Under the pieces are notes generated by a model. It saw nothing but the letters and a program-made list of their open reading frames with translations. It had not been told where the DNA came from and made no database searches. Positions 3,639 to 20,000 of a DNA stretch of 20,000 nt are shown one piece after another. Location: IMG/VR virus record IMGVR_UViG_2061766007_002127. One strand, written 5' to 3'. The first letter of the stretch is position 1; each line of letters begins with the position of its first letter. Both the position numbers and the translations under genes were made by a program. The DNA is from an uncultured virus (IMG/VR IMGVR_UViG_2061766007_002127) (Duplodnaviria > Heunggongvirae > Uroviricota > Caudoviricetes).

Positions 3639-4121
3639 CTACTCCATCAGCACCCTCGTCAGGTGTATGCCCACCATGTCCTTCGGTCGGTACACGTACA
3701 GGCTGTTCCTGTTCATGCCGTCGAACAACGGGAAGAGCCTCTCCTCAAGGAGCATCTGCCTGACCATGTCCTTCGAGTACGTCCCGTTCCATCTCGACCT
3801 GTTGTCGAGCACGTACTGCGAATATTCCTCCTGAAGCCCGTTGTCGTCTATGAATGACCTCATGGCGCTCTCAGAGCTCAGGTACCCCACGCTGTCGCCA
3901 GTCTCCCTCTGGATGTACGCCCTGTACTCGTCGTAGCGCTCGGCGACGAAGCCCCTCAGACCGTGGTGGTCGTCGTCCTGCACCCCGTCGATGACCATCT
4001 GGACTATATCAGGAAGCCCGAGCTCCTCCTCGGAGAGGAACACGGACTTCATGAACCCGACGACCATCTGGGTGCTTACGCCCCTGACGACCTCCCAGTG
4101 GATTGAATCGCTACTCGCCAC
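3639..4121 (-). CDS. Hypothetical protein (160 aa)
   Basis: Open frame with the local codon style; GTG start overlaps the end of the ferritin gene. Confidence 0.75.
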   Translation of the reverse strand: MASSDSIHWEVVRGVSTQMVVGFMKSVFLSEEELGLPDIVQMVIDGVQDDDHHGLRGFVAERYDEYRAYIQRETGDSVGYLSSESAMRSFIDDNGLQEEYSQYVLDNRSRWNGTYSKDMVRQMLLEERLFPLFDGMNRNSLYVYRPKDMVGIHLTRVLME

Positions 4122-4643
4122 AGAATTCCTCTTTCAGCATCTCAAGGTCGTACTTGTGCTCGCACTCGTCTGCCAGAATGGAACGGCAGAGGCGCATGGT
4201 GACCTCATCGACGCCCTTGCAGTAGTCGATAATCTTCTCGTAGTAGGCGATGGCGTCTGCCTCTGCCTTGATGGTGATGGACAGCTCCTCGCATACGTCG
4301 CTGGAATTCACCTCGGTCCACGGGTTGCCGAGCGTCTGCCACTCGTTCGGGTTGAAGATGGGCGTGCCGCCGAGCTGCTTGATGCGCTCCATAATCTTCT
4401 CGGCATGCTCCTTCTCCTCCTTCTCGTGCTGTTCGAATTCGTCCATCGAATCGCAACGACCGTTTCCACGGACGAGATGCTTGCACACCCAGTACTGGTA
4501 GGAGGNNNNNNNNNNNNNNNNNNNNNNNNNNNNNNNNNNNNNNNNNNNNNNNCGTTCCTGTCCGTTTTTGTCTTGTTCTCGTCCACGAGACCCTCAAGAG
4601 CCTGTATGTACTGGTCGATTTCTCCTGCTGTGACTTTTTTCAT
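4111..4643 (-). CDS. Ferritin-like protein, DPSL/bacterioferritin type
   Basis: YQYW...EQHEKEEKEHAEKIMERIKQLGGTP...IKAEADAIAYY...ILADECEHKYDL: two ExxH di-iron motifs and the ERIxQLGGTP signature. N-terminus MKKVTAGE (ATG 4643) joined across gap 4506-4552. Confidence 0.88.
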
Positions 4644-4766: not shown

Positions 4767-5330
4767 CTATTCCTTCATCAGCCTCCTGTGGCTGGAGAGG
4801 ATGTCGTTCGCCTTTCCGACGTTCATCCTGCGTTGCTCCATCCTGTCGACGTCCTCCTCGGTGATGGAGGTCTTAATCCTGACCAGCCCTGCCGTGACCA
4901 AATCCTTCATCGACTGCAACGCAAATCCCTTCGCCTTCCATCCCTCGTAGTACATCGCCGTGCCGTCCTTCCTCGCACGAAGCTCCTCAAGCCTGTCGCT
5001 CCACTCCTGAAGCTCCTTCTCGTGCTTCGTGTTCATCAGGGACTCGATGTTCTTCTGCGTGTCCTTCTGACCAGACTTTCGTATCGTCACGCTGCACACG
5101 TCGTACAGCTCGGCGTACCTCGCCTTGTACCTGCGCTCCATCTCGTTGTACTCTGCCTCTGCCTTCTTCGCCAGCGTCCCGTAGTACGCTATGCCAGCAG
5201 CCTGCACCCTGAGCGACTCGAGGAAGTTCTCCTCCGTCACCTGAAGCGCGTCGTAGTCAGGCTCGTCGAACCTGTATGCGTCGAATTCTATGTTGCTCCC
5301 CTTCTCGAATGCCTCGTCGAACTTGTCCAT
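4767..5330 (-). CDS. UvsY-like recombination mediator (putative)
   Basis: Helical/coiled-coil 187 aa; LQVTEENFLESLRVQ...YYGTL...YAELY...KGFALQSM pattern resembles T4-like UvsY proteins (by eye). Confidence 0.55.
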   Translation of the reverse strand: MDKFDEAFEKGSNIEFDAYRFDEPDYDALQVTEENFLESLRVQAAGIAYYGTLAKKAEAEYNEMERRYKARYAELYDVCSVTIRKSGQKDTQKNIESLMNTKHEKELQEWSDRLEELRARKDGTAMYYEGWKAKGFALQSMKDLVTAGLVRIKTSITEEDVDRMEQRRMNVGKANDILSSHRRLMKE

Positions 5331-5334
5331 GTCT

Positions 5335-6033
5335 TCACCCCTGCGCGTTCGCCACAGCCTTGCCAGTGCTTTTCAGCCTCGCGTTCCTGTAGCCCATCTT
5401 CATCTCAACGTCGTAGTCTGGGTCGCTACTGTCAATCATGACGTTCCAAGCCATGTCCTGGAACTTCTCAAGCATCATCCCTGCCGCCAGCGCCGACATC
5501 TTCAGGCTGTCGACCACGTCGGACAGGCACCCAGGCTTGCCCTTGAACACGATTTCGTCGCCCACTGCGATGTATGCGTAGTGGGACACCTTCCCGTCGC
5601 ACTCCCTCCTGCGTATGCAGACGTCGAAGTCCTTGCCGTCCCTGTCCATCAGGTACAGCGTCCTCGACAGCGACGAGAAGCACTTCACACCGAAGTCGTC
5701 GTCCATAGGAGGCAACGCCTCCCATCCGACCGACTTCACTATCCTTGCGCCGTCCTTCTTGACCTTGTCGCAACGGTCGAGTATGGCGAACACGATGTCT
5801 GCGCAACGGGATATCCTCGACATGAGGTTCTCCATCGTCGTGTAGGGGTCTTCGCCCTTCTCGTTGAACATCGTGTAGCCTAGCTCCTTCGTCCCGTTCT
5901 GCTTGAGCGACACACCTGCGATGTAGTAGACGCTCGAACTGGCTCCCCAGACGGATTTCCTAATCTTCTTGAGGTTCACCACCATGTTGCTCCGTGGGAC
6001 ATCCCACGCCTGCGAACTGACCATTGTCTCCAT
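5335..6033 (-). CDS. Hypothetical protein (232 aa)
   Basis: Long open frame with typical codon style, preceded by a class A promoter. Confidence 0.8.
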   Translation of the reverse strand: METMVSSQAWDVPRSNMVVNLKKIRKSVWGASSSVYYIAGVSLKQNGTKELGYTMFNEKGEDPYTTMENLMSRISRCADIVFAILDRCDKVKKDGARIVKSVGWEALPPMDDDFGVKCFSSLSRTLYLMDRDGKDFDVCIRRRECDGKVSHYAYIAVGDEIVFKGKPGCLSDVVDSLKMSALAAGMMLEKFQDMAWNVMIDSSDPDYDVEMKMGYRNARLKSTGKAVANAQG

Positions 6034-6140
6034 GATTTATTTCAACTCACATCATTAAAACTGCACAAAATCCGACATTTTAAGGATGAATCTCAAATCG
6101 AGAACTTGGAAGCCAAGTCGGAATTTGTTTCCAAGCGTCT

Positions 6141-6949: not shown

Positions 6950-7432
6950 TCAGATGTCCTTCGTCATCCTGTCGATTGACCTGACGAGCGACTCGTTCTC
7001 CGAGAGCATCAGCGTCGTGAGGTAGTCCTCGTGGTGCGTGTTCTTCAGCGCGATGATGACGCGGTTGAGGTACTTCTTCTCCTCGTCCATGAAATGGAGG
7101 AGGATGTCTGGCTTGTCGTACTTCTCTGCGAGGTCGATGACCTTGTTCGAGAACACCCTGTCGTCGATGCGAGACTGGATGACATCCATGGCGTCGTCCA
7201 GGTTGTAGCCATGTGCGCAGAGGCATTCGAGGCAACCTGCCGCGATGTGCTGGTTCTGGCTGGTCAGGAACTCCTTCATCCAGTCCAGCATCTCAAGCGT
7301 GTAGAACCTGTCCAGCCCTTTCGCGACCGTCCTGAACATCGCCTCCGAGAACATGCCACGGAGACACCTGCTCCTGAGCGCCTTGACGTTGTTCTCGGCA
7401 ATCCTGCCGTATGTGTTGGACACATCTGGCAT
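6950..7432 (-). CDS. Hypothetical all-helical protein (160 aa), possibly HEAT/ARM-like
   Basis: Start MPDVSNTY at 7432 lies just after the upstream stop; amphipathic helical pattern. Confidence 0.75.
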   Translation of the reverse strand: MPDVSNTYGRIAENNVKALRSRCLRGMFSEAMFRTVAKGLDRFYTLEMLDWMKEFLTSQNQHIAAGCLECLCAHGYNLDDAMDVIQSRIDDRVFSNKVIDLAEKYDKPDILLHFMDEEKKYLNRVIIALKNTHHEDYLTTLMLSENESLVRSIDRMTKDI

Positions 7433-7434
7433 GT

Positions 7435-7680
7435 TCACAGCACTCCAGCAAGCTTGATGATTGGCACCGACACAATCCACAACAATGAGAACACGCTAAT
7501 CAGCATGTCCTCGATGAACAGCAACACGCCGTCTGGAAGGCTTCCGAACACGTCGAGGCTTCTCTTGAACGACTGGAGGTTTTTTCTCGCCATTTTCATC
7601 GCCGTAGCCTGTATCGCGACTGCGACAACCATGTACAATGCCAGTGCAATCCATCCCATGATTTTCAATGTCGTCATCAT
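7435..7680 (-). CDS. Small membrane protein, two hydrophobic segments
   Basis: IMGWIALALYMVVAVAIQA and MLISVFSLLWIVSVPII; AAGGAG RBS. Confidence 0.75.
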   Translation of the reverse strand: MMTTLKIMGWIALALYMVVAVAIQATAMKMARKNLQSFKRSLDVFGSLPDGVLLFIEDMLISVFSLLWIVSVPIIKLAGVL

Positions 7681-7743
7681 TTCACAATCTCCTTTGCTAG
7701 AATTTTACCAACGGTTTCGACTAGCCATCTTGCCAGTCTGGAT

Positions 7744-7773
7744 ATAATATACGCCGTTTTTCGGATTTGTCAA
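7744..7773 (-). promoter_or_regulatory. Sigma70-like promoter TTGACA-N18-TATTAT (class A)
   Basis: Consensus -35 TTGACA at 7773-7768 and TATTAT at 7749-7744, directly downstream of a terminator. Confidence 0.7.
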
Positions 7774-7775
7774 AT

Positions 7776-7821
7776 GGAAAACGAAAAAATCGCCATGCTT
7801 TTTGAAAGGCATGGCGATTTT
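7776..7821 (-). terminator. Intrinsic terminator (possibly bidirectional)
   Basis: AAAATCGCCATGC...GCATGGCGATTTT inverted repeat with flanking A/T tracts after the 7843 stop. Confidence 0.85.
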
Positions 7822-7842
7822 CAATCATTCTAATCCGAAAGA

Positions 7843-8838
7843 CTAGAAGTGCTGGAGGTTTCCACTGAACACCCTCGCAAGTCCCTTGCCGACGCCGACG
7901 ACGACGGAAATGAGCTCGTTCACAATGTGGATGATTGTCTGCACGCCCTTCTCGACGCTTTCAGCCATTGAACGGACGGCATCCTTGATGTTCTCCCAGG
8001 CAGTGTCCATGGCATTGGAAATCTTTTCAAGTTCGGTTCCGACAACTTCTGCGACCTCGTCAGCCTTCTCGCCGATTGCGCCACCGACCTTCTTGGAAAC
8101 GGCGATGATTTTGTTGACGCCAGCGACGGCGAGCTTCCACGCGCCACTTGCAACCTTCCAGCCAATCCAAAGAGCGCCGATGATGACACCAATGGTGAAC
8201 TTGCCTATTGTCTTTCCAAGTTTTGCAGCCTTTTCCTTGACAAGGTCCATGAATCTGTTGAGACCATTGACGACAGACTGGATTCCGTCATGGATGCCCT
8301 TTGCGATGTCGATGATGAAATTCGCAGAATCCTTGACAGTCTGGGGGTCGAGGTCTCCGAGGCTCTCTGCCACAAGAACTTTGTGGGCAAGCTTCAGCCT
8401 CGCGTACCTTTGGCATTCTTTTTTGAGCTTCGCAGCCTTCAGATAAAGGTTGTGGGCAGCAAGGTTAATGGCATAGAAGTCCTTTACCTGCTTTTCGTTC
8501 GCATTGGCGATTTTAATGTCGCCGAGATATTTCGCCACGAAACTGTAGTTTTCCCTGTAAAGCTTCGAGCTTGCGCCCTTTTCATCCAGCTCCTTGACAT
8601 CATTTGCGAAATCCTTTGCAGATTCGCCGATTTCATTCATTCCCTGCGCAATTTCATTTCCGACTTCTTTGAATTCGGATGGATTGAAAAGCTCCTTCGC
8701 CTTCTCTGCCTCTTCCTTGTCATCGCCAGTGGATTCCTCATCTCCATTGCCAGCGACGAGCATCTTGGCGACCTTCAGAAGCTCGCGTGCGATGCGCGTC
8801 TCGTTGCTTCCTTCGTTCAGGTAGTAGTTCCTTCTCAT
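7843..8838 (-). CDS. Helical Ala/Lys/Gly-rich hypothetical protein (331 aa), possibly virion-associated
   Basis: AAGGAG RBS before ATG 8838 (MRRNYYLNEG); own promoter-like motif and terminator; amphipathic helical C-terminal half with one hydrophobic stretch. Confidence 0.8.
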   Translation of the reverse strand: MRRNYYLNEGSNETRIARELLKVAKMLVAGNGDEESTGDDKEEAEKAKELFNPSEFKEVGNEIAQGMNEIGESAKDFANDVKELDEKGASSKLYRENYSFVAKYLGDIKIANANEKQVKDFYAINLAAHNLYLKAAKLKKECQRYARLKLAHKVLVAESLGDLDPQTVKDSANFIIDIAKGIHDGIQSVVNGLNRFMDLVKEKAAKLGKTIGKFTIGVIIGALWIGWKVASGAWKLAVAGVNKIIAVSKKVGGAIGEKADEVAEVVGTELEKISNAMDTAWENIKDAVRSMAESVEKGVQTIIHIVNELISVVVGVGKGLARVFSGNLQHF

Positions 8839-8894
8839 TTCGTTCTCTCCTTTCGTGAGTTTATGGATATGTTCAAACAAACCAATGGAAATCA

Positions 8895-8914
8895 CACGAT
8901 AATTATACCATCAT
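8895..8914 (-). promoter_or_regulatory. Upstream motif ATGATGGTATAATTATCGTG (class C; TGnTATAAT)
   Basis: Perfect extended -10; 17/20 match to 4687-4706. Confidence 0.6.
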
Positions 8915-8941
8915 GCCGATATAAGCCGAAAGTTAAAATGT

Positions 8942-9945
8942 TCATTGATTCATAAGCTTCCTGTGGTCGGCGTTCCTCAGGAATCCAGACTCCTGCAAGT
9001 CCCTCACGAGCGACTCGCTCCCGTTGTCGATGACGGCATCCTCGTTCTTCCTCAGGTCGTCCCTCGTCGTGATTCCAAGCCCGTTCAGCTCGAAGGCAGA
9101 CGACTTCTGCCTCAGACCGAATTCGTCGATGATGCCTGCTATGTCGGTGGGAACCTTCCTCATCGCGCCGATTCCTGCGACCCTCAACTGCCCAGCGAGG
9201 TCGTTCAGCCCCTCCGTCTCGGCTATCATCTCCACTGCCCCGAAAAGCCGTGGCATGTCGTCGCGAATCTGCGACACGACGTGGCGTATCCACTTCGGCG
9301 TAATTCCACCGACAATCGCGCACCAGTAGGCGAAGCCGTGCATCAGCTCGCCACCAGAGAACGAGTACCCGTTCGCGAACACGGAGCTCTTGTACTCGGA
9401 CAGCTCCCACGCCTCGACGCTCGAAAGCTGGATGTGCTCCGACGCGAATATGTACGACAGCGTGAACGGGTCGGTGGCGTTGCCGTTCGCCTCTGCCTCA
9501 AGGAGCCTGGACTTCATCTCGCACAGCCTCGACGGAGGGTAGTACATCCTGACGGATATGCGCCCGAAGTCGGTGATGTTGCACTCCTCGTCGATGCACC
9601 CCGTCTCCAGCAGGTACTTCGCCACGTCGTCCCAGCTCATCGCGCATCCCTGCACGGCAGCGAGCGACCTCGAATGCCATCTCTGGAACGACTCCTCGTC
9701 GTACACCCTGTCAATCCACGGCAGGACGTGGAACGCCACGTCCCCGACGGTCGTGAGCTCGGACTTCACGGGGGGCGTCTCCTCCTCAAGGCATCGCCTC
9801 GCGTACTCTNNNNNNNNNNNNNNNNNACAGCCCTGCCAGACCTCTCGTAGCTTCTGCCAGCCCGTCCGACAGCCTGCTTCACCTCGCCCATCTCGACGAG
9901 CTCGCGTGCCCTGCGCACGCCACAGACTATGACCTCGTCAATCAT
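8942..9945 (-). CDS. Ski2/Hel308-like helicase, C-terminal half (motif VI, winged helix, ratchet/HhH region)
   Basis: Manual translation from ATG 9945: MIDEVIVCGVRRARELVEMGEVKQAVGRAGRSYERSGRAV (motif VI QxxGRAGR); after gap 9810-9826 ...PVKSEL...ITDFGRISVRMYYPP, matching the Hel308 TxxGxxxSxxY pattern. Confidence 0.85.
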
Positions 9946-10115
9946 TCCCTAGACTCTTCCTCTTCGCCGTACACGTCCCGTATCTCGTCGGTGTTCTCGC
10001 GCCACTTCGCCTTCGGCTTCTGGCTCTGCCTCTCTGGGTTGCCACCACCGTCGTACCTTCTTCCGTCGCGCCTCTTCCTAGACCAGTCCGTCTTCTGCTT
10101 CCTGTGACCGTGCAT
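9942..10115 (-). CDS. Small charged protein (57 aa; basic N-terminus, acidic C-terminus), not in ORF track
   Basis: MHGHRKQKTDWSRKRRDGRRY...VYGEEEESRE*; purine-rich RBS; its TGA overlaps the ATG of the helicase C-half. Confidence 0.65.
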   Translation of the reverse strand: MHGHRKQKTDWSRKRRDGRRYDGGGNPERQSQKPKAKWRENTDEIRDVYGEEEESRE

Positions 10116-10479
10116 TCTCGTCCTCTTCCTTGAGCCTGTCGAGGTCTATGTCGTAGTGCTCGGCAAGCCATCGCTCTATTTCCTCGTTGTACGCCTTCCT
10201 CTGTGACTTCGGTATCGGCGTGCTCCTTCCGACGGCAGGTTGCATCGCCTTCTCCCTCGTCCTCCTTCGGTCGGCTTTCCTCTCGACCTTCCTCTCCTCG
10301 ACTGGGACGTCGAACTTCTCCCACTGCGACCTGTTCACAAGCGCGTTCGCCTTGTTCCCCCTGTCGGTGAGACCCTGAAGCATGTACGTGTAGTGCCCCC
10401 GAACATCCGTCCGTATCTTGGACATCACCTCGAATTCCACCTTGCCACCCTCGACAAGCACGTATGCAGTGAACCTCAT
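10078..10479 (-). CDS. Hypothetical protein (133 aa)
   Basis: MRFTAYVLVEGG...; ATGA overlap with upstream stop at 10476-10479; GAGGAG RBS. Confidence 0.75.
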   Translation of the reverse strand: MRFTAYVLVEGGKVEFEVMSKIRTDVRGHYTYMLQGLTDRGNKANALVNRSQWEKFDVPVEERKVERKADRRRTREKAMQPAVGRSTPIPKSQRKAYNEEIERWLAEHYDIDLDRLKEEDENARSQEAEDGLV

Positions 10480-10730
10480 GTCCTTCTCCTCCTGTTCCCA
10501 AGCCTTTCCCTGAACGACCTCATCACCGACATGATACCGTCGATTTCGCCGAGGCATGCCCTTCCAGACCTCCCCTCATGCTCGAGCTCGTCCCTGAGAA
10601 GGCTCAGTTGCATCATAGCCTCCCCACATCTGTACTTGACGCGGTCGGAATCCGACATGACCTTCGCCGTCGTGGTCATGTCGATTGTGTCGTAAGGAAG
10701 TGATGGCTTGATGCTCGGGTTCCTGCTCAT
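10476..10730 (-). CDS. Hypothetical protein (84 aa)
   Basis: Fills the space between the zinc-ribbon gene and the next gene, with ATGA coupling at its 3' end. Confidence 0.65.
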   Translation of the reverse strand: MSRNPSIKPSLPYDTIDMTTTAKVMSDSDRVKYRCGEAMMQLSLLRDELEHEGRSGRACLGEIDGIMSVMRSFRERLGNRRRRT

Positions 10731-10734
10731 AATA

Positions 10735-10938
10735 TCATAATGGCTTTATCGGCTTGTCGTCCGTCTTCGTCACAGTCCACGGCATCCTCCTGTGGCACAC
10801 GTCGCAGAAGACATACCCGTCCTGCACCTTCGCCCTCATCTCGTTCCCACAGAAAGGGCAGTATCTCCTTCTCCTGCGCCTGTCGCTCTTCCTCTTGACG
10901 CTCCCGTAGAATTCCTCGTCCTTGACCGAATCGCTCAT
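10735..10938 (-). CDS. Small zinc-ribbon protein (67 aa)
   Basis: MSDSVKDEEF...RRRRRRYCPFCG...FCDVCH: two CxxC pairs; ATG overlaps the helicase N-half stop. Confidence 0.8.
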   Translation of the reverse strand: MSDSVKDEEFYGSVKRKSDRRRRRRYCPFCGNEMRAKVQDGYVFCDVCHRRMPWTVTKTDDKPIKPL

Positions 10939-11849
10939 AGCGTAACACCCATGCCTAGGGACGACGTGCATACCAGCACATTCAATCCCGAGTACTCGTT
11001 CCTGAAGTCGGCTATCATGCGCTCCCTGACCCGTTGCTGGACACCAGCGTGGTAGAACGCGCACGACACATTGTACTCCCTGAGAAATTTGCAAAGATTT
11101 TCGCCTACCGTCTTCGAGTGGACGAACACGAGCATCTTCTGCTCCTCCGAGGCGATTCTCCTCGCCTCCTTCAGGATGAACCTGTCCTGCTCGTCGAAGT
11201 CCTCTGCAATCTCCACGGACTTCACCAGCTCGGTCGGTCGCCACGACGAATTCACGTACCTCGTCGTCTTCTGGTTGCAAGCCTTCAGCCACCTGGCTAT
11301 CTCAAGGTAGTTGGACATCGTGCCAGACAGGCACACGACCCTGCACTTCGGGTTCAGCATCGTGATGTTCATGATGAGGGACTCGCTCCCAGAGCCACGC
11401 GACTCGTCCATGAGGAGATGCGCCTCGTCGAACACGAGCACCGCCACGTCCCTTATCCACCTGTCCCTGGCCCTGCATCGCAGGTTCATCGACTCGACCG
11501 TGCTCACGATGAGCCTCGAATTCTCGAAGTCGCACTGCTTCGTCTCGCTCTCCGACGACACCAGCGCAATCGGGTACGACCCGAACGTGGGATGCCTCCT
11601 CCAGTCGCCGTGCTTCTCATTGCNNNNNNNNNNNNNNNNNNNNNCGTACACTGCCTTGCTCGTGTGGCTTCTCGCAAGCTCGTAGCCCATGACAGCCTCG
11701 GCTATGACCGTCTTGCCAGACGCAGTGCTCGCCGACACGACGAGGTTGCAGTCCTCCGTGAAGAACGGGACGCACTTGAGCTGGACTGGGTTCCACTCGT
11801 CGAACCCGAATTCGCAGTACGGGTAGTCGTATGGGGTCTTGAAGTTCAT
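10935..11849 (-). CDS. Ski2/Hel308-like DEAH helicase, N-terminal half (motifs Q to V)
   Basis: WNPVQ, ASTASGKT, DEAH, LSGT, WRP, FVHSK, YHAG, CTSSLGMGVTL*; stops at the end of motif V. Confidence 0.92.
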   Translation of the reverse strand: MNFKTPYDYPYCEFGFDEWNPVQLKCVPFFTEDCNLVVSASTASGKTVIAEAVMGYELARSHTSKAVYXXXXXXXXNEKHGDWRRHPTFGSYPIALVSSESETKQCDFENSRLIVSTVESMNLRCRARDRWIRDVAVLVFDEAHLLMDESRGSGSESLIMNITMLNPKCRVVCLSGTMSNYLEIARWLKACNQKTTRYVNSSWRPTELVKSVEIAEDFDEQDRFILKEARRIASEEQKMLVFVHSKTVGENLCKFLREYNVSCAFYHAGVQQRVRERMIADFRNEYSGLNVLVCTSSLGMGVTL

Positions 11850-12049
11850 TTAGCCCTGAAACGCTCCACGAGCTCGTCAATCTGGCTCGACTTGTACTTG
11901 TATATGCTTCTCACCTCGTCCCTCTGGTCGCTCTCTGTGGCACGCCTGCACTCCTCGCAGTGCCTGCACTTGCCCGTGCATTCCTCGAATTTCTGGTCGT
12001 AGTAGCCGAAGCATGAAAAAGGTATGAATATCGTCTTTGGCGCTGGCAT
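11846..12049 (-). CDS. Small Cys-rich protein (67 aa)
   Basis: CFGYYD...ECTGKCRHCEEC; GGGAGA RBS; probable metal binding. Confidence 0.7.
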   Translation of the reverse strand: MPAPKTIFIPFSCFGYYDQKFEECTGKCRHCEECRRATESDQRDEVRSIYKYKSSQIDELVERFRAK

Positions 12050-12134
12050 ATTTTTCTCCCTGTGCTTTTATCNNNNNNNNNNNNNNNNNNNNNNNNNNNN
12101 NNNNNNNNNNNNNNNNNNNNNNNNNNNNNNNNNN

Positions 12135-12896
12135 GGGCGTGAATTCGTCGAACCTCAGCCCGAACGCCTCGCAGTACTTCCTCTTGATGCCGTATATGAC
12201 CAGCGCGAACGTGGCGTCGTCGTAGCCAGACTTCGCCTTCAGCTCGCCATACGGCACCTTGAGCCTCCTGTCGTATGAGTCGAGTATGTCGTCCTGCATC
12301 GACAGGATGATGTCGAACACCATCGACTCTGCTGGGTCGAGCCTCGACCTGAAGTCCTCGTACTGCTCGGCGAACATCAGCCTCCTTATGCCGTCGTCCT
12401 CCATCCTCTCGTCGTCCGTGCTGTACGCCAGCGCGTCCATCTTGCCGTCTGGCTCCTCCTCGTCGGAGTCCGTGTTCTGGGATGCGATGTCGTCGTACCT
12501 GAAGAACCTCGAATTGTACTTGTTCACGTTCTGCCTGAGCGTGTTTATCACGGAGTTGGCGACGATGACTATCCACGTCGAGACCATCGTCCCCTTCCAC
12601 TCCTTCCACGTGTGCCTCGACTTCACAATCTTCTTCCAGATTTCCTGGTAGACATCCTCCCACTCCATCATGACGTTGTTCTTGTGCATCACCTTGTATA
12701 TCATCTTCTTGATGCTCTCGTGGAACTCGAATTCCTCCTCCTTCGTCATGTTCCCGTACTTGAACTTTATCATCAGCCTCCTGTTGGCGTCGTTCCTGCA
12801 CACGGGCTTGACGGGATGGCGCCCCTGTATGGTCTCAAGGTAGCGTATCTTCCCGTACCTCCTCCTGAATTCATCCATGTCAACTGCCATTGTCAT
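12135..12896 (-). CDS. Sigma70-family-like factor (stop presumed in N gap 12073-12134)
   Basis: Region 2-like EDVYQEIWKKIVKS...KGTMVSTWIVIVANSVI; region 4-like RLDPAESMVF...YGELKAKSGY; ATGA-coupled to primase. Confidence 0.72.
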
Positions 12897-14152
12897 CCCC
12901 TTGGTTTTCCAGCCTTTTCGGCTATCTCCATCCTCGCGTCGTAGTTCGCGTTCCCTGCTTGCGCAGCCTGCCTCATGAACCCCAGCAGCTCCTCCCTGCA
13001 GAACTTCTTCGGGTCCTTCCCGTCTGGGAAGTTCAGCACGTCAATGGACTCGATGTCGCCGAGGAGCGCCTCGACTGCCTTCCTCGTCGCGACGCACCCA
13101 GCCACGTCCATGTCGAAGCCGAGGTACAGCTCCCTCGGGTTCATCCTCTTGAGCATCACCCGTTGCTCTGGCTTCAGGACGGTGCCGTGTATGCTGACGC
13201 AGTTGATTCCCTCCTGCAACAGCTTCATGGCGTCCCTCTCGCCCTCTACGATGACGAGCTCATCCAGGTCGAACCCACCTTCGAGCACCTCGTACTGACC
13301 GTACATGTGGTTCCTCGACTGGAATCCTGGGCAGTACAGGGTCTTCCTGTACCCCTTCCTGACCGAATCCTCCGTGACCTTCGAGTCTATCCTNNNNNNN
13401 NNNTTTCCTGTACCCCTTCCTGACCGAATCCTCCGTGACCTTCGAGTCTATCCTGCGCATCTTGTCGTATGTCTTCCTCACCCACCATTCCTCGCCCATG
13501 TAGTTCACGGCGATGTACCCACAGACATCGTGGTTCCCGTCGACGAACGGTATCATCGCCCGACCCTCGAGGTAGCCCGATTCAATCGAGCAGACCCCGA
13601 GGAAGTCCACGGTGTCCTTCGTGATGCCGTCGCTGGCGAAGTACTCAAGGCACCTGTCGCTGACGTGACCGTTCGCCATGAGCCTCTTCATCATCGCGAT
13701 GCCCTTCTGGAGCTCCTCCTGCCTCTTGGCGTCAAGAGCCTCGTGGCTCTGCTCGATGGTCGGGTCGAGCACGAAGTCTGGCTTCGGGAGGNNNNNNNNN
13801 NNNNNNNNAGCTTCGCTATCGTCTCCCCGACGGTCGCCAGACGGTACATCCTCTTGGCGATGTACACGAAGTTCGACGCCTTTCCAGACGTGAAGCACAT
13901 GCAGTCGCCGTTCTCTGCGCTCATGAACCACTTCGGCAGGTGCTGGGCGTGACCGTCGTGCAGGAAGTGGTCTGGGCAGTACCCCTTCCACTGGTTCCCA
14001 TGCACGAGCATCGGATGCACGTTCCAGGACTCTAGGATTCCACGCACGTCGCACGACGACATGACCATCCTCTTGAGCTCGTCGGTGAGCTCGATGTCCT
14101 GCGATGCAGAGCTTTCGCACGCCCTGCGAAGATGGTTCTCGAACGACCCCAT
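12893..14152 (-). CDS. dnaG: DnaG-type DNA primase (spans two gaps)
   Basis: N-terminal CPDH...CMCF zinc-binding-like domain; GRAMIPF; TOPRIM motifs IVEGERD, SIHGT, FDMDVAG, KDP. Confidence 0.9.
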
Positions 14153-14212
14153 CAGACCTTCTCCCCTTTCGCCTTCTTCTCCTTGNNNNNNNNNNATTCT
14201 CGAACGACCCCA

Positions 14213-16403
14213 TCAGACCTTCTCCCCTTTCGCCTTCTTCTCCTTGAGTATCTCAAGGAACGACTTCTTGTGTGGTATGTCGGCAGAAGTCCTCATCGGC
14301 TTCTCCTCAACAGGAGAATATGGCATGCCATCGTCGAAAGGAGTCAGAGGCTCGCTGGAATCGATGCCAGTGGGCGTGGACGGAGGAGCGATTTCCTCCA
14401 CGGGTCGCTTCTCTGGCTCTGGCTCTGGTTCAGGCTCTGGTCGCTTCTCTGGCTCAGGTTCTGGCTCAGGCTCTGGTTGCTTCTCTGGCTCTGGCTCAGG
14501 TAGGGGGNNNNNNNNNNNNNNNNNNNNNNNNNNNNNNNNNNNNNNNNNNNNNNNNNNNNNNNNNNNNGTCGGAATAGGCTTCCTTGAATTCTTCCGATTC
14601 GGCTATCTTCTCGTATCTCTCGTTGTAGTCCTTGCTGTCTGGGGCGTCTGCAATGAAGTCGTTCTTAATGGCATTCTCCTCGGCTGGCTTCTNNNNNNNN
14701 NNNNNNNNNNNNNNNNNNNNNNNNNNNNNNNNNNNNNNNNNNNNNNNNNNCTCCTGCCCGACAGCCTGCTCCACCGTGGTCTCATCGGTTGCCTCTGACG
14801 ACGAGCTTTCGACGCCACCGAAGAATGCGTCGTCCTTGAGCGACTTGCCCTCCTTCTCCATGCTCGCCTTGAGCTCCTCCACCTGCCTCTTCAGGTCGTC
14901 AGCCTTCGCCTTGTTTATCTCGTCCACGGAAATCTCAGACACCATCTGACCTGGCGCCACCGTGTCGTCGCACATCTTCTGAGCCTGCGCAGCGATGCTC
15001 TGCAACGCAGCCTCGTCCTTCGAGTCGCCGTCCTCCTCGTAGAACACGCCCGTCGGGGCGTGCATCTTCTGCCTGAACACGAACACGGCTCCGTCTCGGT
15101 TCTTCGGGACGCACAGCACGAGATGGTGCATCTGGCGCTGGTCCTCTGGAAGCTCCTGAGCCTGCGCCGTCGCCGTCTGGTTCACGATTCCGATGAGCGT
15201 GTTGGCAGAATGCACCTTCCTCTTCGTCCCGAACACGTCGGACTGGTTGAGGAACGGCTTGTCCTTCCTCTCCTGCTTCTCCGACTGGATGCCAGCCTGC
15301 GTCGCCGTAATCAACGGCACGTTGCAGTTGATGGCGACCTGCTTCAGGTCGCTCGTCACCTTGCCGCCCTCGTCGTTCTCGCTGTACGCCTTCTCGCACG
15401 GCTTCATGAGGTCGAGGTAGTCCACAACAATCACGTCGATGTGGATGCCCTGCATCTCAAGTTGCCTGTACGCACGCTCAATCCACGTGGCGTCCGTCTG
15501 CTGGGGGAACTCGTAGATGAATATCGAGCCCTTCGCGTTCCTCTCGCCGTCCGAGTACTTCCTCAGCGACATGTACTGCTCGTCCGTGTACGTCCCCTTC
15601 TTGAACACCGAGTACAACGCGCCAGAGTCGGCAGACATGTACTTGGAGCGCATCTGGAACTCGTTCTCCTCGTTGCCACAGTGCAGGACGTTCCTCCCAG
15701 ACTTCCTGATGTTGCAAGCCATCGCCTTCATCAGCGTGGACTTGCCCTTTCCCGACAGACCGAACACGACCGTCAGCTCCGCTGGGAACAATCCACCCGT
15801 CTTCTCGTCGAACGTCTTGAAGCCAGTCGGTATCCCAGCGTATATCTCTGGATGCTCCTTCCTCCTGCGCACCTCCTCGAACCAGTCGTCGGAATCCTTG
15901 TGCAGGTTGTATATCCTGTTCTCCTTCTCCACCCCACCGAGGTCTATCGACTTCCTCTTCAGGATGTTCGCAGCCTCGACGTACTCGCCAGTCTCCAGCT
16001 TGGTGTACGCCTCCCTGATGACTGCCTCGGTCGAGTTGGCGAGCTGGACTTCCTCGAGGTTCTGGAGTATCGCGTCGATGTCCTCCGTGACCGATGTCTT
16101 CCTCACGAGCTGGAACTCTGCCGTGAAGTCGTCTATCCTCGTCTTGTCCTTGACGGAGTCGAACCTCTTCTGAATCTCGAAGCCGAACTGCTCGTCGGAC
16201 AGCGTCGACCTCTTCTCGTTGAACGTCGTCGATATGCAGTCGTAGATGAACAGCCTGCTCTGGTTGGTGAAGAACTCGGAACGGTGCTTCCCCACAGTCC
16301 TCTGGAGATTGAGCTTGTCGGACAGGAGCGCATGGAGCAACTGGCGCTCAAGATTGACCGTCGACACCCTCGTCGTGACATTGCTGGCGAATTTTATAGG
16401 CAT
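14213..16403 (-). CDS. dnaB: DnaB-like replicative helicase with long acidic/Pro-Glu C-terminal tail
   Basis: GIPTGF...GGL, Walker A GLSGKGKS, IVVDYLD, ATQ, KNRDG. Tail is joined across gaps to ...KKAKGEKV*; that stop overlaps the primase ATG (TGATG). Confidence 0.9.
14403..14500. repeat. 36-nt tandem coding repeat (~2.7 copies) built from 6-nt units, encoding PEPEPEPEPEKR
   Basis: Units start at 14403, 14439 and 14475. Confidence 0.9.
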
Positions 16404-17539: not shown

Positions 17540-18390
17540 NNNNNNNNNNNNNNNNNNNNNNNNNNNNNNNNNNNNNNNNNNNNNNNNNNNNNNNNNNNNN
17601 NNNNNNNNNNNNNNNNNNNNNNNNNNNNNNNNNNNNNNNNNNNNNNNNNNNNNNNNNNNNNNNNNNNNNNNNNNNNNNNNNNNNNNNNNNNNNNNNNNNN
17701 NNNNNNNNNNNNNNNNNNNNNNNNNNNNNNNNNNNNNNNNNNNNNNNNNNNNNNNNNNNNNNNNNNNNNNNNNNNNNNNNNNNNNNNNNNNNNNNNNNNN
17801 NNNNNNNNNNNNNNNNNNNNNNNNNNNNNNNNNNNNNNNNNNNNNNNNNNNNNNNNNNNNNNNNNNNNNNNNNNNNNNNNNNNNNNNNNNNNNNNNNNNN
17901 NNNNNNNNNNNNNNNNNNNNNNNNNNNNNNNNNNNNNNNNNNNNNNNNNNNNNNNNNNNNNNNNNNNNNNNNNNNNNNNNNNNNNNNNNNNNNNNNNNNN
18001 NNNNNNNNNNNNNNNNNNNNNNNNNNNNNNNNNNNNNNNNNNNNNNNNNNNNNNNNNNNNNNNNNNNNNNNNNNNNNNNNNNNNNNNNNNNNNNNNNNNN
18101 NNNNNNNNNNNNNNNNNNNNNNNNNNNNNNNNNNNNNNNNNNNNNNNNNNNNNNNNNNNNNNNNNNNNNNNNNNNNNNNNNNNNNNNNNNNNNNNNNNNN
18201 NNNNNNNNNNNNNNNNNNNNNNNNNNNNNNNNNNNNNNNNNNNNNNNNNNNNNNNNNNNNNNNNNNNNNNNNNNNNNNNNNNNNNNNNNNNNNNNNNNNN
18301 NNNNNNNNNNNNNNNNNNNNNNNNNNNNNNNNNNNNNNNNNNNNNNNNNNNNNNNNNNNNNNNNNNNNNNNNNNNNNNNNNNNNNNNNNN

Positions 18391-18562
18391 GAAGTATGAA
18401 CTCGTGCTCCTTCCTGCACTGCGACGCGAGGAACGACACTATCTTCTGCGCCAGCGCGTTGTTGACGCTTGAGACGAACACGTTCGGCTTAGGCTCGACG
18501 AACCACGTCTTCAGGCATCCCCTTATCTTGTCTGGTATGCTATTCGCTATCAGCACCGTCAT
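18391..18562 (-). CDS. cas2: Type I-E Cas2 (3' end in N gap)
   Basis: MTVLIANSIPDKIRGCLKTWFVEPKPNVFVS, a typical Cas2e N-terminus; overlaps the end of cas1. Confidence 0.93.
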
Positions 18563-19405
18563 TGAAGTCTCCGAAAATGCTTTTCATGTCGTTGTTGAAC
18601 TGTTTGAGTATCTTCATCGCGTTCGCGTTGCGAAGGAACTCTGAAATCGCGTTTTCCTTTGAATATGGCACGACATCGGTCAACTTGAACGCAGGCTCTA
18701 TCGACAGCCTCTCCTTGTATAGGTCAGCCATGTCGTAGACGAACGGGAGGGGGCTTCCAGAATGCACGAATCCGATGTGTGGCGAAAACCCGAGCGATAT
18801 GGTCGCAGAGCAGATGACCGAATAAAGGAACNNNNNNNNNNNNNNNNNNNNNNNNTGTTCGTCTCGGACGCATCGCTGAAATCGGTCAAGTGCGCATTCC
18901 TGTAGTTCCATATGACCTTGTACTTGTCTGCATAGAATTCATACTGCTTCCTGACCCTCGCTCCCTCCATGCCCTTGAGTTGCTCGAGCGTCTTGCCAGT
19001 CACATTGTCATCTGGGAACCTGCTTGAGAACATTTTCCTTGCAATCTCAAGAGATTTCGACCTGTTGCAGGCAAGGCTCATCTGCTTCCTCATGTTTCTG
19101 CTGTCGGAAGTCGGGTTCAGTCCACATGCGTAGAACTTCAGACCGTTCTCGCCTGTCCAGAACACGTTGCAGTTGTACTCGGACAGAATCTTAACGGCGT
19201 CGTGCGTGACGGACGTGCCAGGTCCGAGAAGGATGCAGTTAATCACGCCACATGGAATCGAAACGACCTCTCCATCGGCGTTGATGAACTTCACGCTCCT
19301 GTCGTCTATCTCAAGCCGTCCATGCTCAAGATAGACGAATGGGTACTTGGTTTCGACACGTGGGAGAAGCTCCTTCGGAACGGTGAAAATGCCTGCGTCC
19401 ATCAT
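18540..19405 (-). CDS. cas1: Type I-E Cas1
   Basis: FVYLEHGRLEIDD, ILLGPGTSVTHDA, LKGMEGARVR, GFSPHIGFVHSG, FVYDMADLYK; frame shift coincides with N gap 18832-18855. Confidence 0.97.
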
Positions 19406-20000
19406 GCACGGGCGTATTCGCTCTTGTACACCCTCCTGTGGGTGTAGGTGTCGTACTTGCCGAACTCTGTCGTCGGGACATCACGGACGTTCATTTCGTC
19501 GATGTAGTCGTCNNNNNNNNNNNNNNNNNNNNNNNTCAGACCGTCGACAATCGCCATCGCCTCCTCCTTCGAGTCGAAAATGCCCTGTAACACGCGACCA
19601 CATGGAACGCATTTCTTGCGACCGATGTACATCTGCCAGACTGGGCGCTGGAGGCTGTCTGCGATTTCGCCTGCGAGCGTGTCGTCCTCAATCCCGAGCA
19701 ACACCATGAAGCGCTGGTTCACGAGGTAGTCCTTGTCGACAATCGATGTGTATGTCTCCGTCTTCTTCTTGTTCTCGCAAGTGAATTCGGTCATGAAATC
19801 GCCGACATCCATCTTGACGCTGGAACTGGGGTTCTTGTCAATGAACTTTATTCCTGCCTCTCTCCATCCAGTGCCTATGGTCTGGAAATCGGTTTCGATT
19901 CTGCCCTTCGTGATGGCAAAGACCTCAACGTCCATCTGGCGAAGCCTGTCGAACAGCTCGGTCAGCACCCCGTTCCTGCCCATCGCACAGCAAATCATTC
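19402..20000 (-). CDS. cas5: Type I-E Cas5 (5' end outside the window)
   Basis: ICCAMGR, DFQTIG, YL...F, LQRPVWQMYIGRKKCVP, VRDVP motifs. Confidence 0.93.
   Translation of the reverse strand, partial: MICCAMGRNGVLTELFDRLRQMDVEVFAITKGRIETDFQTIGTGWREAGIKFIDKNPSSSVKMDVGDFMTEFTCENKKKTETYTSIVDKDYLVNQRFMVLLGIEDDTLAGEIADSLQRPVWQMYIGRKKCVPCGRVLQGIFDSKEEAMAIVDGLXXXXXXXXDDYIDEMNVRDVPTTEFGKYDTYTHRRVYKSEYARA

Follow-up and report, generated by a model that had tools for sequence, protein, structure and literature searches.

A Hel308-like helicase encoded as two genes with a variable cargo slot in a large uncultured phage

Layout and identity of the split helicase

The window analyzed here is a stretch of 20,000 nucleotides (nt) from an uncultured virus of the Caudoviricetes (IMG/VR record IMGVR_UViG_2061766007_002127), which carries on its minus strand a helicase of the Hel308 type divided into two separate open reading frames (ORFs), referred to as the N-half and the C-half (Table 1). 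In translation, the N-half ends with ...VLVCTSSLGMGVTL, followed by a TGA stop codon at 10937-10935, and the C-half starts with an ATG at 9945, reading MIDEVIVCGVRRARELVEMGEVKQAVGRAGR, 989 nt past that stop. The gap between the halves holds four further ORFs, which we refer to as cargo genes 1 to 4, and both new ends are coupled to their neighbours by ATGA overlaps: the N-half stop overlaps the start of cargo gene 1 at 10938-10935, and the C-half ATG overlaps the TGA of cargo gene 4 at 9945-9942. There are no runs of the letter N between positions 9945 and 10935, the nearby runs being those at 9810-9826 and 11624-11644. ORF reading and the listing of N runs thereby confirmed the layout described in an earlier sequence-only reading of this DNA, namely an N-half ending in CTSSLGMGVTL, a separate downstream ORF about 990 nt away, four intervening genes without an N gap, and ATGA coupling of both new ends.

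The N-half is preceded by a Cys-rich ORF whose stop codon overlaps the N-half start in the same manner, and homologues of this ORF are found directly before the N-half in the related loci L003, L004, L012, L013 and L027. No terminator-like sites were found in the region 8800-12100, and the single promoter-like site equals the yield from shuffled sequence. Because of the ATGA overlaps connecting the Cys-rich ORF, the N-half, the cargo genes and the C-half, and because of the missing terminator, these genes probably form one coupled expression unit.

Table 1. Features of the split helicase locus in the window, and inteins in related single-gene loci
Feature	Locus	Coordinates	Strand	Length (amino acids)	Remarks
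Upstream Cys-rich ORF	Window	11846..12049	-	67	Stop overlaps N-half ATG (ATGA)
Helicase N-half	Window	10935..11849	-	304	RecA1 (ASGKT, FDEAH) and RecA2 to the end of motif V (TSSLGMGVTL, stop)
Cargo gene 1, zinc-ribbon protein (CPFC...CDVC)	Window	10735..10938	-	67	Basic N-terminal stretch; ATG overlaps N-half stop
Cargo gene 2, orphan	Window	10476..10730	-	84	Stop overlaps start of next gene (ATGA 10479-10476)
Cargo gene 3 (MRFTAYV...)	Window	10078..10479	-	133	N-terminal small beta-barrel, basic linker, conserved C-terminal helix (EIExWLAEHYDI)
Cargo gene 4, charged peptide (MHGHRKQKTDW...)	Window	9942..10115	-	57	Stop overlaps C-half start (ATGA)
Helicase C-half	Window	8942..9945	-	336 (true length)	Motif VI (QAVGRAGR) within the closing beta-alpha-beta unit of RecA2; further on, winged-helix, ratchet and helix-hairpin-helix-like domains
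Intein in motif V	L029	6900-8230			LAGLIDADG endonuclease domain
Intein in motif V	L033	6960-8230			LAGLIDADG endonuclease domain
Intein at motif II	L034	about 4884-6090			LAGLIDADG endonuclease domain

As given in the window, the C-half appears to be broken into an ORF of 59 amino acids (9766-9945) and another of 275 amino acids (8942-9769). This frame break is an artefact: the 17 N letters at 9810-9826 take the place of 24 nt, and each of the four sequencing runs compared adds seven more letters at this site (at 9826). A protein of 336 amino acids from another assembly (P0129) matches the C-half exactly on either side of the N gap. In the N-half, a 21-N run at 11624-11644 masks motif Ia, and the protein P0015 from another assembly is identical to it at 296 of 296 non-X positions. 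Neither half contains an internal stop after correction of the N gap. The length of cargo gene 3 was counted from its ATGA-coupled start, a longer form of 159 amino acids being present in the ORF list.

The gap region is also recovered in other sequencing runs, and those matching the stretch are labelled as bovine gut or gut metagenomes. Run X2, another run of the sample from which the window probably stems, contains a contig of 1834 nt spanning positions 9325-11151 with zero differing letters. Run X4 of another study yielded contigs spanning 8901-10067 and 10423-11900, and run X3 of a third study a contig spanning 10489-11900. Each junction is therefore bridged independently, and the misassembly that had been considered as a possible refutation of the split is contradicted by these contigs.

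Profile searches identify both halves as parts of the same helicase type. In Pfam, the N-half matches DEAD with an expectation value (E) of 3e-17 and positions 12-81 of the 110 positions of the Helicase_C profile, the latter match reaching its final residue. Searches against PDB profiles assign the N-half to Hel308 (E 4e-42), with matches also to Hjm and Brr2, and positions 15-153 of the C-half to Hel308 residues 353-500 (E 2.4e-14). In PHROG 6819 ('Holliday junction branch migration helicase', 645 positions), the orthologous N-half from L004 aligns at 18-301 and the C-half at 330-468. An AlphaFold2 model of a C-half orthologue, based on a 26-sequence alignment, reached a predicted local distance difference test score (pLDDT) of 91.3 and shows a strand (4-8), a helix (19-26) and a second strand (38-42), followed by helical domains. 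Its best match in the PDB is Hel308 2va8, with a template modelling (TM) score of 0.65 and an E of 3e-8, and the alignments to Hel308 2va8, 2p6r and 9b15 and to Hjm 2zj8 cover about 355 columns (E 2e-8 to 9e-7, TM 0.58-0.65). By this structural match, the C-half possesses the C-terminal architecture of Hel308, consisting of winged helix, ratchet and helix-hairpin-helix (HhH); at the sequence level, the Pfam family HHH_5 was matched solely in the intact relative L001 (E 5.7e-6) and gave no match in the C-half.

The N-half contains the Walker A (motif I) and DExH (motif II) sequences, with residues G53, K54, T55, D149 and A151 being invariant among 19 N-halves, and the motif VI residues Q24, G27, R28 and R31 are invariant across 26 C-halves. 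Motifs IV to VI of the RecA2 domain are all present, distributed over the two chains. The partial Helicase_C match of the N-half and the position of motif VI in the C-half thus place the break within the second RecA domain, as had been proposed. The exactness of the cut was assessed with a 663-position profile built from 21 intact relatives. Profile position 321 is the last one reached by the N-halves of the window and four relatives. The alignment of the C-halves begins with residue 4 at position 325 (for L022, with residue 3 at position 324). Residue 1 of the C-half therefore falls on position 322 and directly abuts the end of the N-half. Together, the halves span positions 15-321 and 325-649 of the intact relatives. 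The cut is exact, with no residue lost, duplicated or added, and the hidden Markov model (HMM) alignment bears out the abutment claimed before. Nothing follows GVTL in the clade of the window; some distant members carry one to three added residues. Intact relatives such as the 675-amino-acid ORF of LR756511.1 and a 671-amino-acid protein of Microcystis phage Mvi-JY20 read through this site as ...TSTLAWGLNL PARRVVILGVHRG...QMVGRAGR.

The split and the cargo slot in related phages

The orthologous N-half of L004 was used as query for a cluster search, which listed 120 clusters with 36-95% identity. Among these listed matches, 117 of the 120 N-half-like clusters stop at most three residues from motif V and 115 exactly at motif V, the three exceptions looking truncated. 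On the other side of the cut, 29 of 31 C-half clusters start with MIDEV or MIDKV, and none of the 31 carries a precomputed Pfam domain. A profile scan of IMG/VR resulted in 43 loci, of which 26 (L009-L034) were examined and the 17 weak partial matches (L035-L051) left out. The helicase is split in 22 of the 26 examined loci, and in 21 of these the C-half lies downstream in the same orientation (20 detected by tblastn and L021 by ORF reading), the remaining locus L017 stopping at a contig end. The distance between the halves ranges from -4 to 1885 nt. The other four loci contain a single gene, which is plain in L030, interrupted by an intein in motif V in L029 and L033, and by an intein at motif II in L034. 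The related viral contigs from IMG/VR are 255-329 kilobases (kb) in size. In an exhaustive profile search of 1.84 billion representatives, 1,204 proteins were found at E <=1e-30, the best-scoring of which are split forms of about 300 amino acids, and the intact forms of 600-1100 amino acids rank after them.

A FastTree phylogeny (LG model) was calculated for 145 N-half regions, of which 42 belong to split and 103 to intact forms, with 19 of 164 sequences dropped because of ambiguous tails (14) or a start after profile position 30 (5). It places 39 of the 42 split forms into one clade of 41 leaves with a support of 0.93, which argues for one main origin of the split. Selection was estimated pairwise among the window, L004 and L007. 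The N-halves share 80-84% and the C-halves 70-71% amino-acid identity, with ratios of nonsynonymous to synonymous substitution rates (dN/dS) of 0.06-0.13 and 0.11-0.23, respectively; the cargo gene of 119-133 amino acids shows 67-71% identity and a dN/dS of 0.15 for the window versus L004 only, dS of the other two pairs being too saturated for computation. All these dN/dS values are rough because the synonymous sites are near saturation (pS 0.54-0.70), and the proportion of nonsynonymous differences (pN) is far below that of synonymous ones (pS) in all comparisons. Close relatives thus share the split and are not under relaxed selection (dN/dS 0.06-0.23), contrary to the combination of intact relatives and relaxed selection that would have spoken against a functional split. 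The breakpoint had been expected to recur in related phages and does so in 117 of the 120 listed clusters as well as in the 22 IMG/VR loci. Judging from these comparisons, the split is an old family trait rather than an event of this genome.

Besides the roughness of the dN/dS values, two groups of proteins weigh against the idea of a single cut retained for its function. The fused forms P0157 (606 amino acids) and P0164 (659 amino acids) are nested inside the split clade. A helicase in one piece is thus viable as well, and its division into two genes may by itself confer no advantage. Their junctions (GVNI-LSSN-DREHVVIVG and GVNL-SCDRAIIV) resemble the start of a split C-half (MADR...), unlike the canonical PARR, which suggests re-fusion, and both proteins may represent secondary re-fusions. 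In addition, the split-looking proteins P0172 (561 amino acids), P0218 (398 amino acids) and P0254 (392 amino acids) branch among the intact forms and terminate exactly at the G[IV]NI of motif V. The single origin is therefore not strict, and these three proteins may derive from independent cuts at the same site. The contig encoding P0172 measures 466 kb and the one encoding P0254 44 kb. A viral scan yielded for P0172 only the intact relative L052 (51%), and a single metagenome scan yielded L053 (58%), which is cut by a contig end.

The space between the halves differs in content from locus to locus. In L012, L013 and L028 it is empty, and the halves overlap by 4 nt with stop and start codon forming ATGA. 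The set of the window, consisting of the zinc ribbon, the 84-amino-acid orphan, the 133-amino-acid protein and the charged MHGH peptide, is found without the orphan in L009, L011 and L014, and L010 and L015 carry an unrelated ORF of 79 amino acids replacing the zinc ribbon together with an extra ORF of 125 amino acids. L027 contains an ORF of 122 amino acids. In 12 loci of the deeper clade, the slot is occupied by a gene for a uracil-DNA glycosylase (UDG), which was recognized by Pfam in L022 (to E 8e-32), L016 and L025; an HMM seeded with the sequences of L016, L017, L020, L021, L022 and L024 also matches those of L018, L019, L023, L025, L026 and L031. L032 mirrors L019 and is outside this count. 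L031 contains an additional SLOG (YAcAr) gene in its slot. In L025, a LAGLIDADG intein (7145-8800) is inserted in the UDG gene of the slot. The UDG HMM did not match anything in the available DNA of the window's clade, and the window belongs to a gut-phage subclade with other cargo in the slot instead of UDG.

Cargo gene 1 shows weak matches to zinc-ribbon families of Pfam, all below the curated cut-offs, and has orthologues in L009 and L011 (68 amino acids) and in L014 (53 amino acids); the unrelated 79-amino-acid ORF is found instead in L007 and L010. The 68-amino-acid zinc-ribbon protein weakly matches an HNH PHROG (E 0.009). Cargo gene 2 has neither a Pfam or PHROG match nor a counterpart in L009-L015. 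Cargo gene 3 is the conserved cargo of the window's clade and is represented by 32 protein clusters, all of 104-138 amino acids and confined to contigs of this phage group, which are up to 656 kb in size; P0316 agrees with it at 131 of 133 positions. An AlphaFold2 model of its orthologue from L004 (119 amino acids, pLDDT 83.5) consists of a small beta-barrel (residues 1-65), a basic linker and the conserved helix. For this 119-amino-acid protein, Foldseek gave no match at E <=0.001, a protein atlas search gave no usable match, and the best Z score by VIA-align was 4.9, obtained with small barrels of the Cren7, SH3 and Tudor-like types at residues 1-59. As these fold matches are too weak (Z <=4.9), no fold or function is named. 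Cargo gene 4 has no family match and evolves fast (37-46% identity, dN/dS 0.23-1.0), and its counterparts starting with MHG[HQ]KK are present in L009 and L011, L010 and L015, and L014.

The slot differs even between strains. Run X3 contains 346 extra letters between positions 10730 and 10737, and one of its contigs diverges at 10480, so that both breaks fall on the borders of cargo gene 2; contigs of run X5 diverge at 10937-10943. The strain variants are 95-99% alike and differ at these points, all of which are gene borders. The space between the halves is a slot for variable cargo, with gene content changing even among strains of about 97% identity, and the expectation that the inserted genes vary among related phages is borne out by distances of -4 to 1885 nt with differing content.

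Possible function of the two chains

From the comparative evidence, we consider it highly likely that the locus encodes an ancient and working two-chain Hel308-like helicase with an old inherited cut, the gap serving as a changing slot for small genes. In this model, a large uncultured phage encodes its superfamily 2 (SF2) helicase of the Hel308/Hjm type as two genes. The first chain (304 amino acids) provides RecA1 and RecA2 through the end of motif V, and the second (336 amino acids) contributes motif VI within the final strand-helix-strand of RecA2 and continues into the winged-helix, ratchet and HhH-like domains. The cut would have arisen a single time close to the root of a large phage clade and persisted since then. 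Both chains would be produced from one translationally coupled gene chain and most likely associate non-covalently, RecA2 being completed by strand complementation to give a working helicase. In Hel308 structures, the domains that come after RecA2 (winged helix, ratchet and HhH-like) enfold the two RecA domains. An extensive interface of this kind together with the strand complementation would hold the chains together and rebuild the ATP site. The space between the genes would then have become a slot in which small genes were gained, swapped and lost. The occurrence of the cut in 117 of the 120 listed clusters and 22 loci and the dN/dS values of 0.06-0.23 support a functional two-chain helicase over a decayed gene, which is also what the sequence-only reading had favoured. 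The three loci with a 4-nt overlap likewise speak for this model, as the halves do without any cargo there.

Because the scaffold is a gapped metagenome assembly with 16 N runs in the window, one of which falsely breaks the frame of the C-half, the split could in principle represent an artefact or a decaying pseudogene. We regard this as extremely improbable, since the junctions are bridged by contigs of four runs from different studies, 22 loci and 117 protein clusters share the cut, dN/dS lies far below 1, and no internal stops are left after resolving the N gap. It is also conceivable that the halves are rejoined, either by a group I or II intron, by ribosomal bypass or frameshifting or by protein trans-splicing, and that the active enzyme is a single chain. 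The loss of zero residues at the cut is what a precise splice would leave behind, and an intein with a LAGLIDADG endonuclease lies in motif V of the intact loci L029 and L033 only three residues upstream of the cut (position 78 versus 81 of the Helicase_C profile). These inteins read ...AYG / C...HN / CNLPARR and are recognized by the Pfam families Intein_splicing and LAGLIDADG, and motif V is therefore a target of self-splicing elements. However, an Rfam scan of 9700-11200 up to E 10 for a group I or II intron core gave only one chance-level match to a small nucleolar RNA, although a core unlike the Rfam families could escape such a scan. Furthermore, the 989 nt are occupied by four ORFs, the conserved one being under purifying selection, and no conserved ribozyme core would tolerate a cargo that differs in content and varies from -4 to 1885 nt. 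The termini of the halves lack extra residues that could be intein halves, and Pfam detected no intein family in them, although the same scans do detect the inteins of L033 and L025. In the loci with overlapping halves, these lie in different frames, and no slippery heptamer was seen in the junctions inspected. We therefore rate rejoining as very improbable, and the RNA-level rejoining that had been offered as an option is unsupported, given the lack of an Rfam intron, the protein-coding genes under selection in the gap and the three relatives whose overlapping halves leave no space for an intron.

No homing endonuclease was recognized by Pfam and PHROG scans in the four ORFs of the window or in the cargo of its relatives, which together with the profile abutment agrees with the earlier remark that neither intein ends nor such an endonuclease are apparent. 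A transposon-like insertion was considered as well; there is no pair of inverted or direct repeats at the ends of the insert, only short scattered repeats, and this origin is therefore not supported. As a separate observation, the N-half cluster P0010, which is 93% identical to the N-half of L004, ends with ...LGMGCNM versus the usual ...LGMGVTL, and its Cys occupies the site of the +1 Cys in the intein-bearing alleles.

The halves might also have ceased to cooperate and taken on separate roles, with the N-half acting, for example, as an ATPase with another partner and the linkage reflecting nothing but inherited gene order. Such a separation would agree with the faster evolution of the C-half (70-71% versus 80-84% identity in the N-half) and with cargo that parts the halves by up to 1.9 kb. 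We nevertheless judge it to be improbable: motif VI (QxxGRAGR) is invariant in the C-halves and the N-halves retain motifs I, II and V, a pattern to be expected only if both halves still contribute to one ATPase site; 21 of 22 split loci keep both halves in order on one strand, and fused forms arise again inside the split clade.

An extension of the two-chain model is that the conserved cut is put to use rather than tolerated, as a fixed and translationally coupled slot within the helicase operon. The products of the slot would be synthesized in concert with the helicase chains and would bind to these as interchangeable third subunits, possibly at the seam of the divided RecA2. The candidates for such subunits would be UDG in the deeper clade, and the zinc ribbon and the small-barrel protein with its basic tail in the gut-phage clade. 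If true, the enzyme would be a repair helicase of modular build, with an accessory activity that cassette exchange can replace. We consider this extension rather unlikely.

A working two-chain helicase of this kind would mean that a RecA-like motor domain tolerates a division between motifs V and VI, remaining functional in many phages over long evolutionary time, and that nature has performed an experiment in split-protein complementation with SF2 helicases. Such a helicase would also extend phage genes in pieces beyond recent accidents by homing endonucleases to a stable, clade-wide arrangement. Without recognition of the family, annotation will continue to list the halves as a truncated helicase and a hypothetical protein.

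Genomic neighbourhood and comparison with known systems

The neighbourhood of the locus in the window represents a phage replication module with genes for a DnaB-like helicase, a Toprim primase, a protein with sigma-70 region 2 and an N6/N4 methylase, together with Cas1 and Cas5. In the primase region (12893-14213), the reading frame changes across N runs, giving three ORFs with the Zn-finger, middle and Toprim parts. As for the run at 9810-9826, the lengths of the N runs at 13792-13808 and 13394-13403 are not faithful, and the region may be one gene. A Cas1-like gene (18698-19405) and a Cas5-like gene (19402-19998) adjoin an 851-N run (17540-18390), which suggests a phage-borne CRISPR-Cas locus at 17540-19998. 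On the other side of the helicase, ORFs of 350 amino acids (7843-8895) and 81 amino acids (7435-7680) separate the C-half from a conserved gene of 176 amino acids (6950-7480), which directly follows the C-half in L004, and the segment 7435-8895 looks like a second variable spot just downstream of the C-half. The same minus-strand gene run contains a gene for a ferritin-like or rubrerythrin-like protein (4111-4488) and that of the N6/N4 DNA methylase (2242-2994).

No DNA match to the window, near or distant, was found in the phage collection. Of its 50,697 phage records, 17 (H1-H17) match the N-half and one matches the C-half, and none was found to contain the split form; the check for a break covered H1 and H2, both of which are uninterrupted. 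A literature search, whose coverage mostly did not extend to subscription journals, found no description of a split Hel308-like phage helicase. The archaeal Hel308 and Hjm proteins (PDB 2p6r, 2va8, 2zj8 and 9b15) share the motif set and the domain order with the helicase of the window (RecA1, RecA2, winged helix, ratchet and HhH-like end), and the Brr2 cassettes and the helicase-like domain of Pol theta are further relatives. However, the archaeal enzymes are single polypeptides, whereas RecA2 of the window is divided between two products after motif V, and sequence identity with the solved structures amounts to only 16-19%. The intact homologues, namely the ORF of the uncultured phage LR756511.1, XAI95530.1 of Mvi-JY20 and the lipothrixvirus helicase of PHROG 6819, belong to the same family with 22-30% identity to the N-half, and they are encoded by one gene reading ...GLNL PARRVVILG..., where the window reads GVTL, a stop codon and then MIDEVIVCG.

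Two known arrangements of divided phage genes resemble the locus in part. In the nrdA-a / mobE / nrdA-b region of Aeromonas phage Aeh1, nrdA is cut by the homing endonuclease gene mobE, and two chains make up the product, with no RNA or protein splicing involved (PMC3045599; PMC2677866), new tails at the cut ends being essential for activity (PMC3045599). The likeness consists in an essential gene of DNA metabolism that is retained as two collinear ORFs with foreign DNA between them, while the window differs by having neither a recognized endonuclease nor tails, by the conservation of its cut across a large clade and by its changing cargo. The second arrangement is that of fractured genes from marine metagenomes, in which, according to Dassa et al. 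2009 (PMC2677866), split inteins are combined with a free-standing endonuclease; the model proposed there includes a later loss of the endonuclease, and the helicase among the eight enzyme types concerned is gp41 (PMC2677866). These genes likewise show an N-part, an inserted gene and a C-part in the original order and belong to phage-like DNA replication and repair functions. They differ in that they need split-intein halves at their new ends, whereas the ends in the window abut without an extra residue, and the divided enzyme is Hel308-like and not gp41. The intein alleles of L029 and L033 provide a further point of comparison, with a mobile element in motif V of the very same family; these inteins are inserted in frame, and the genes remain single ORFs, unlike the helicase of the window with its two chains.

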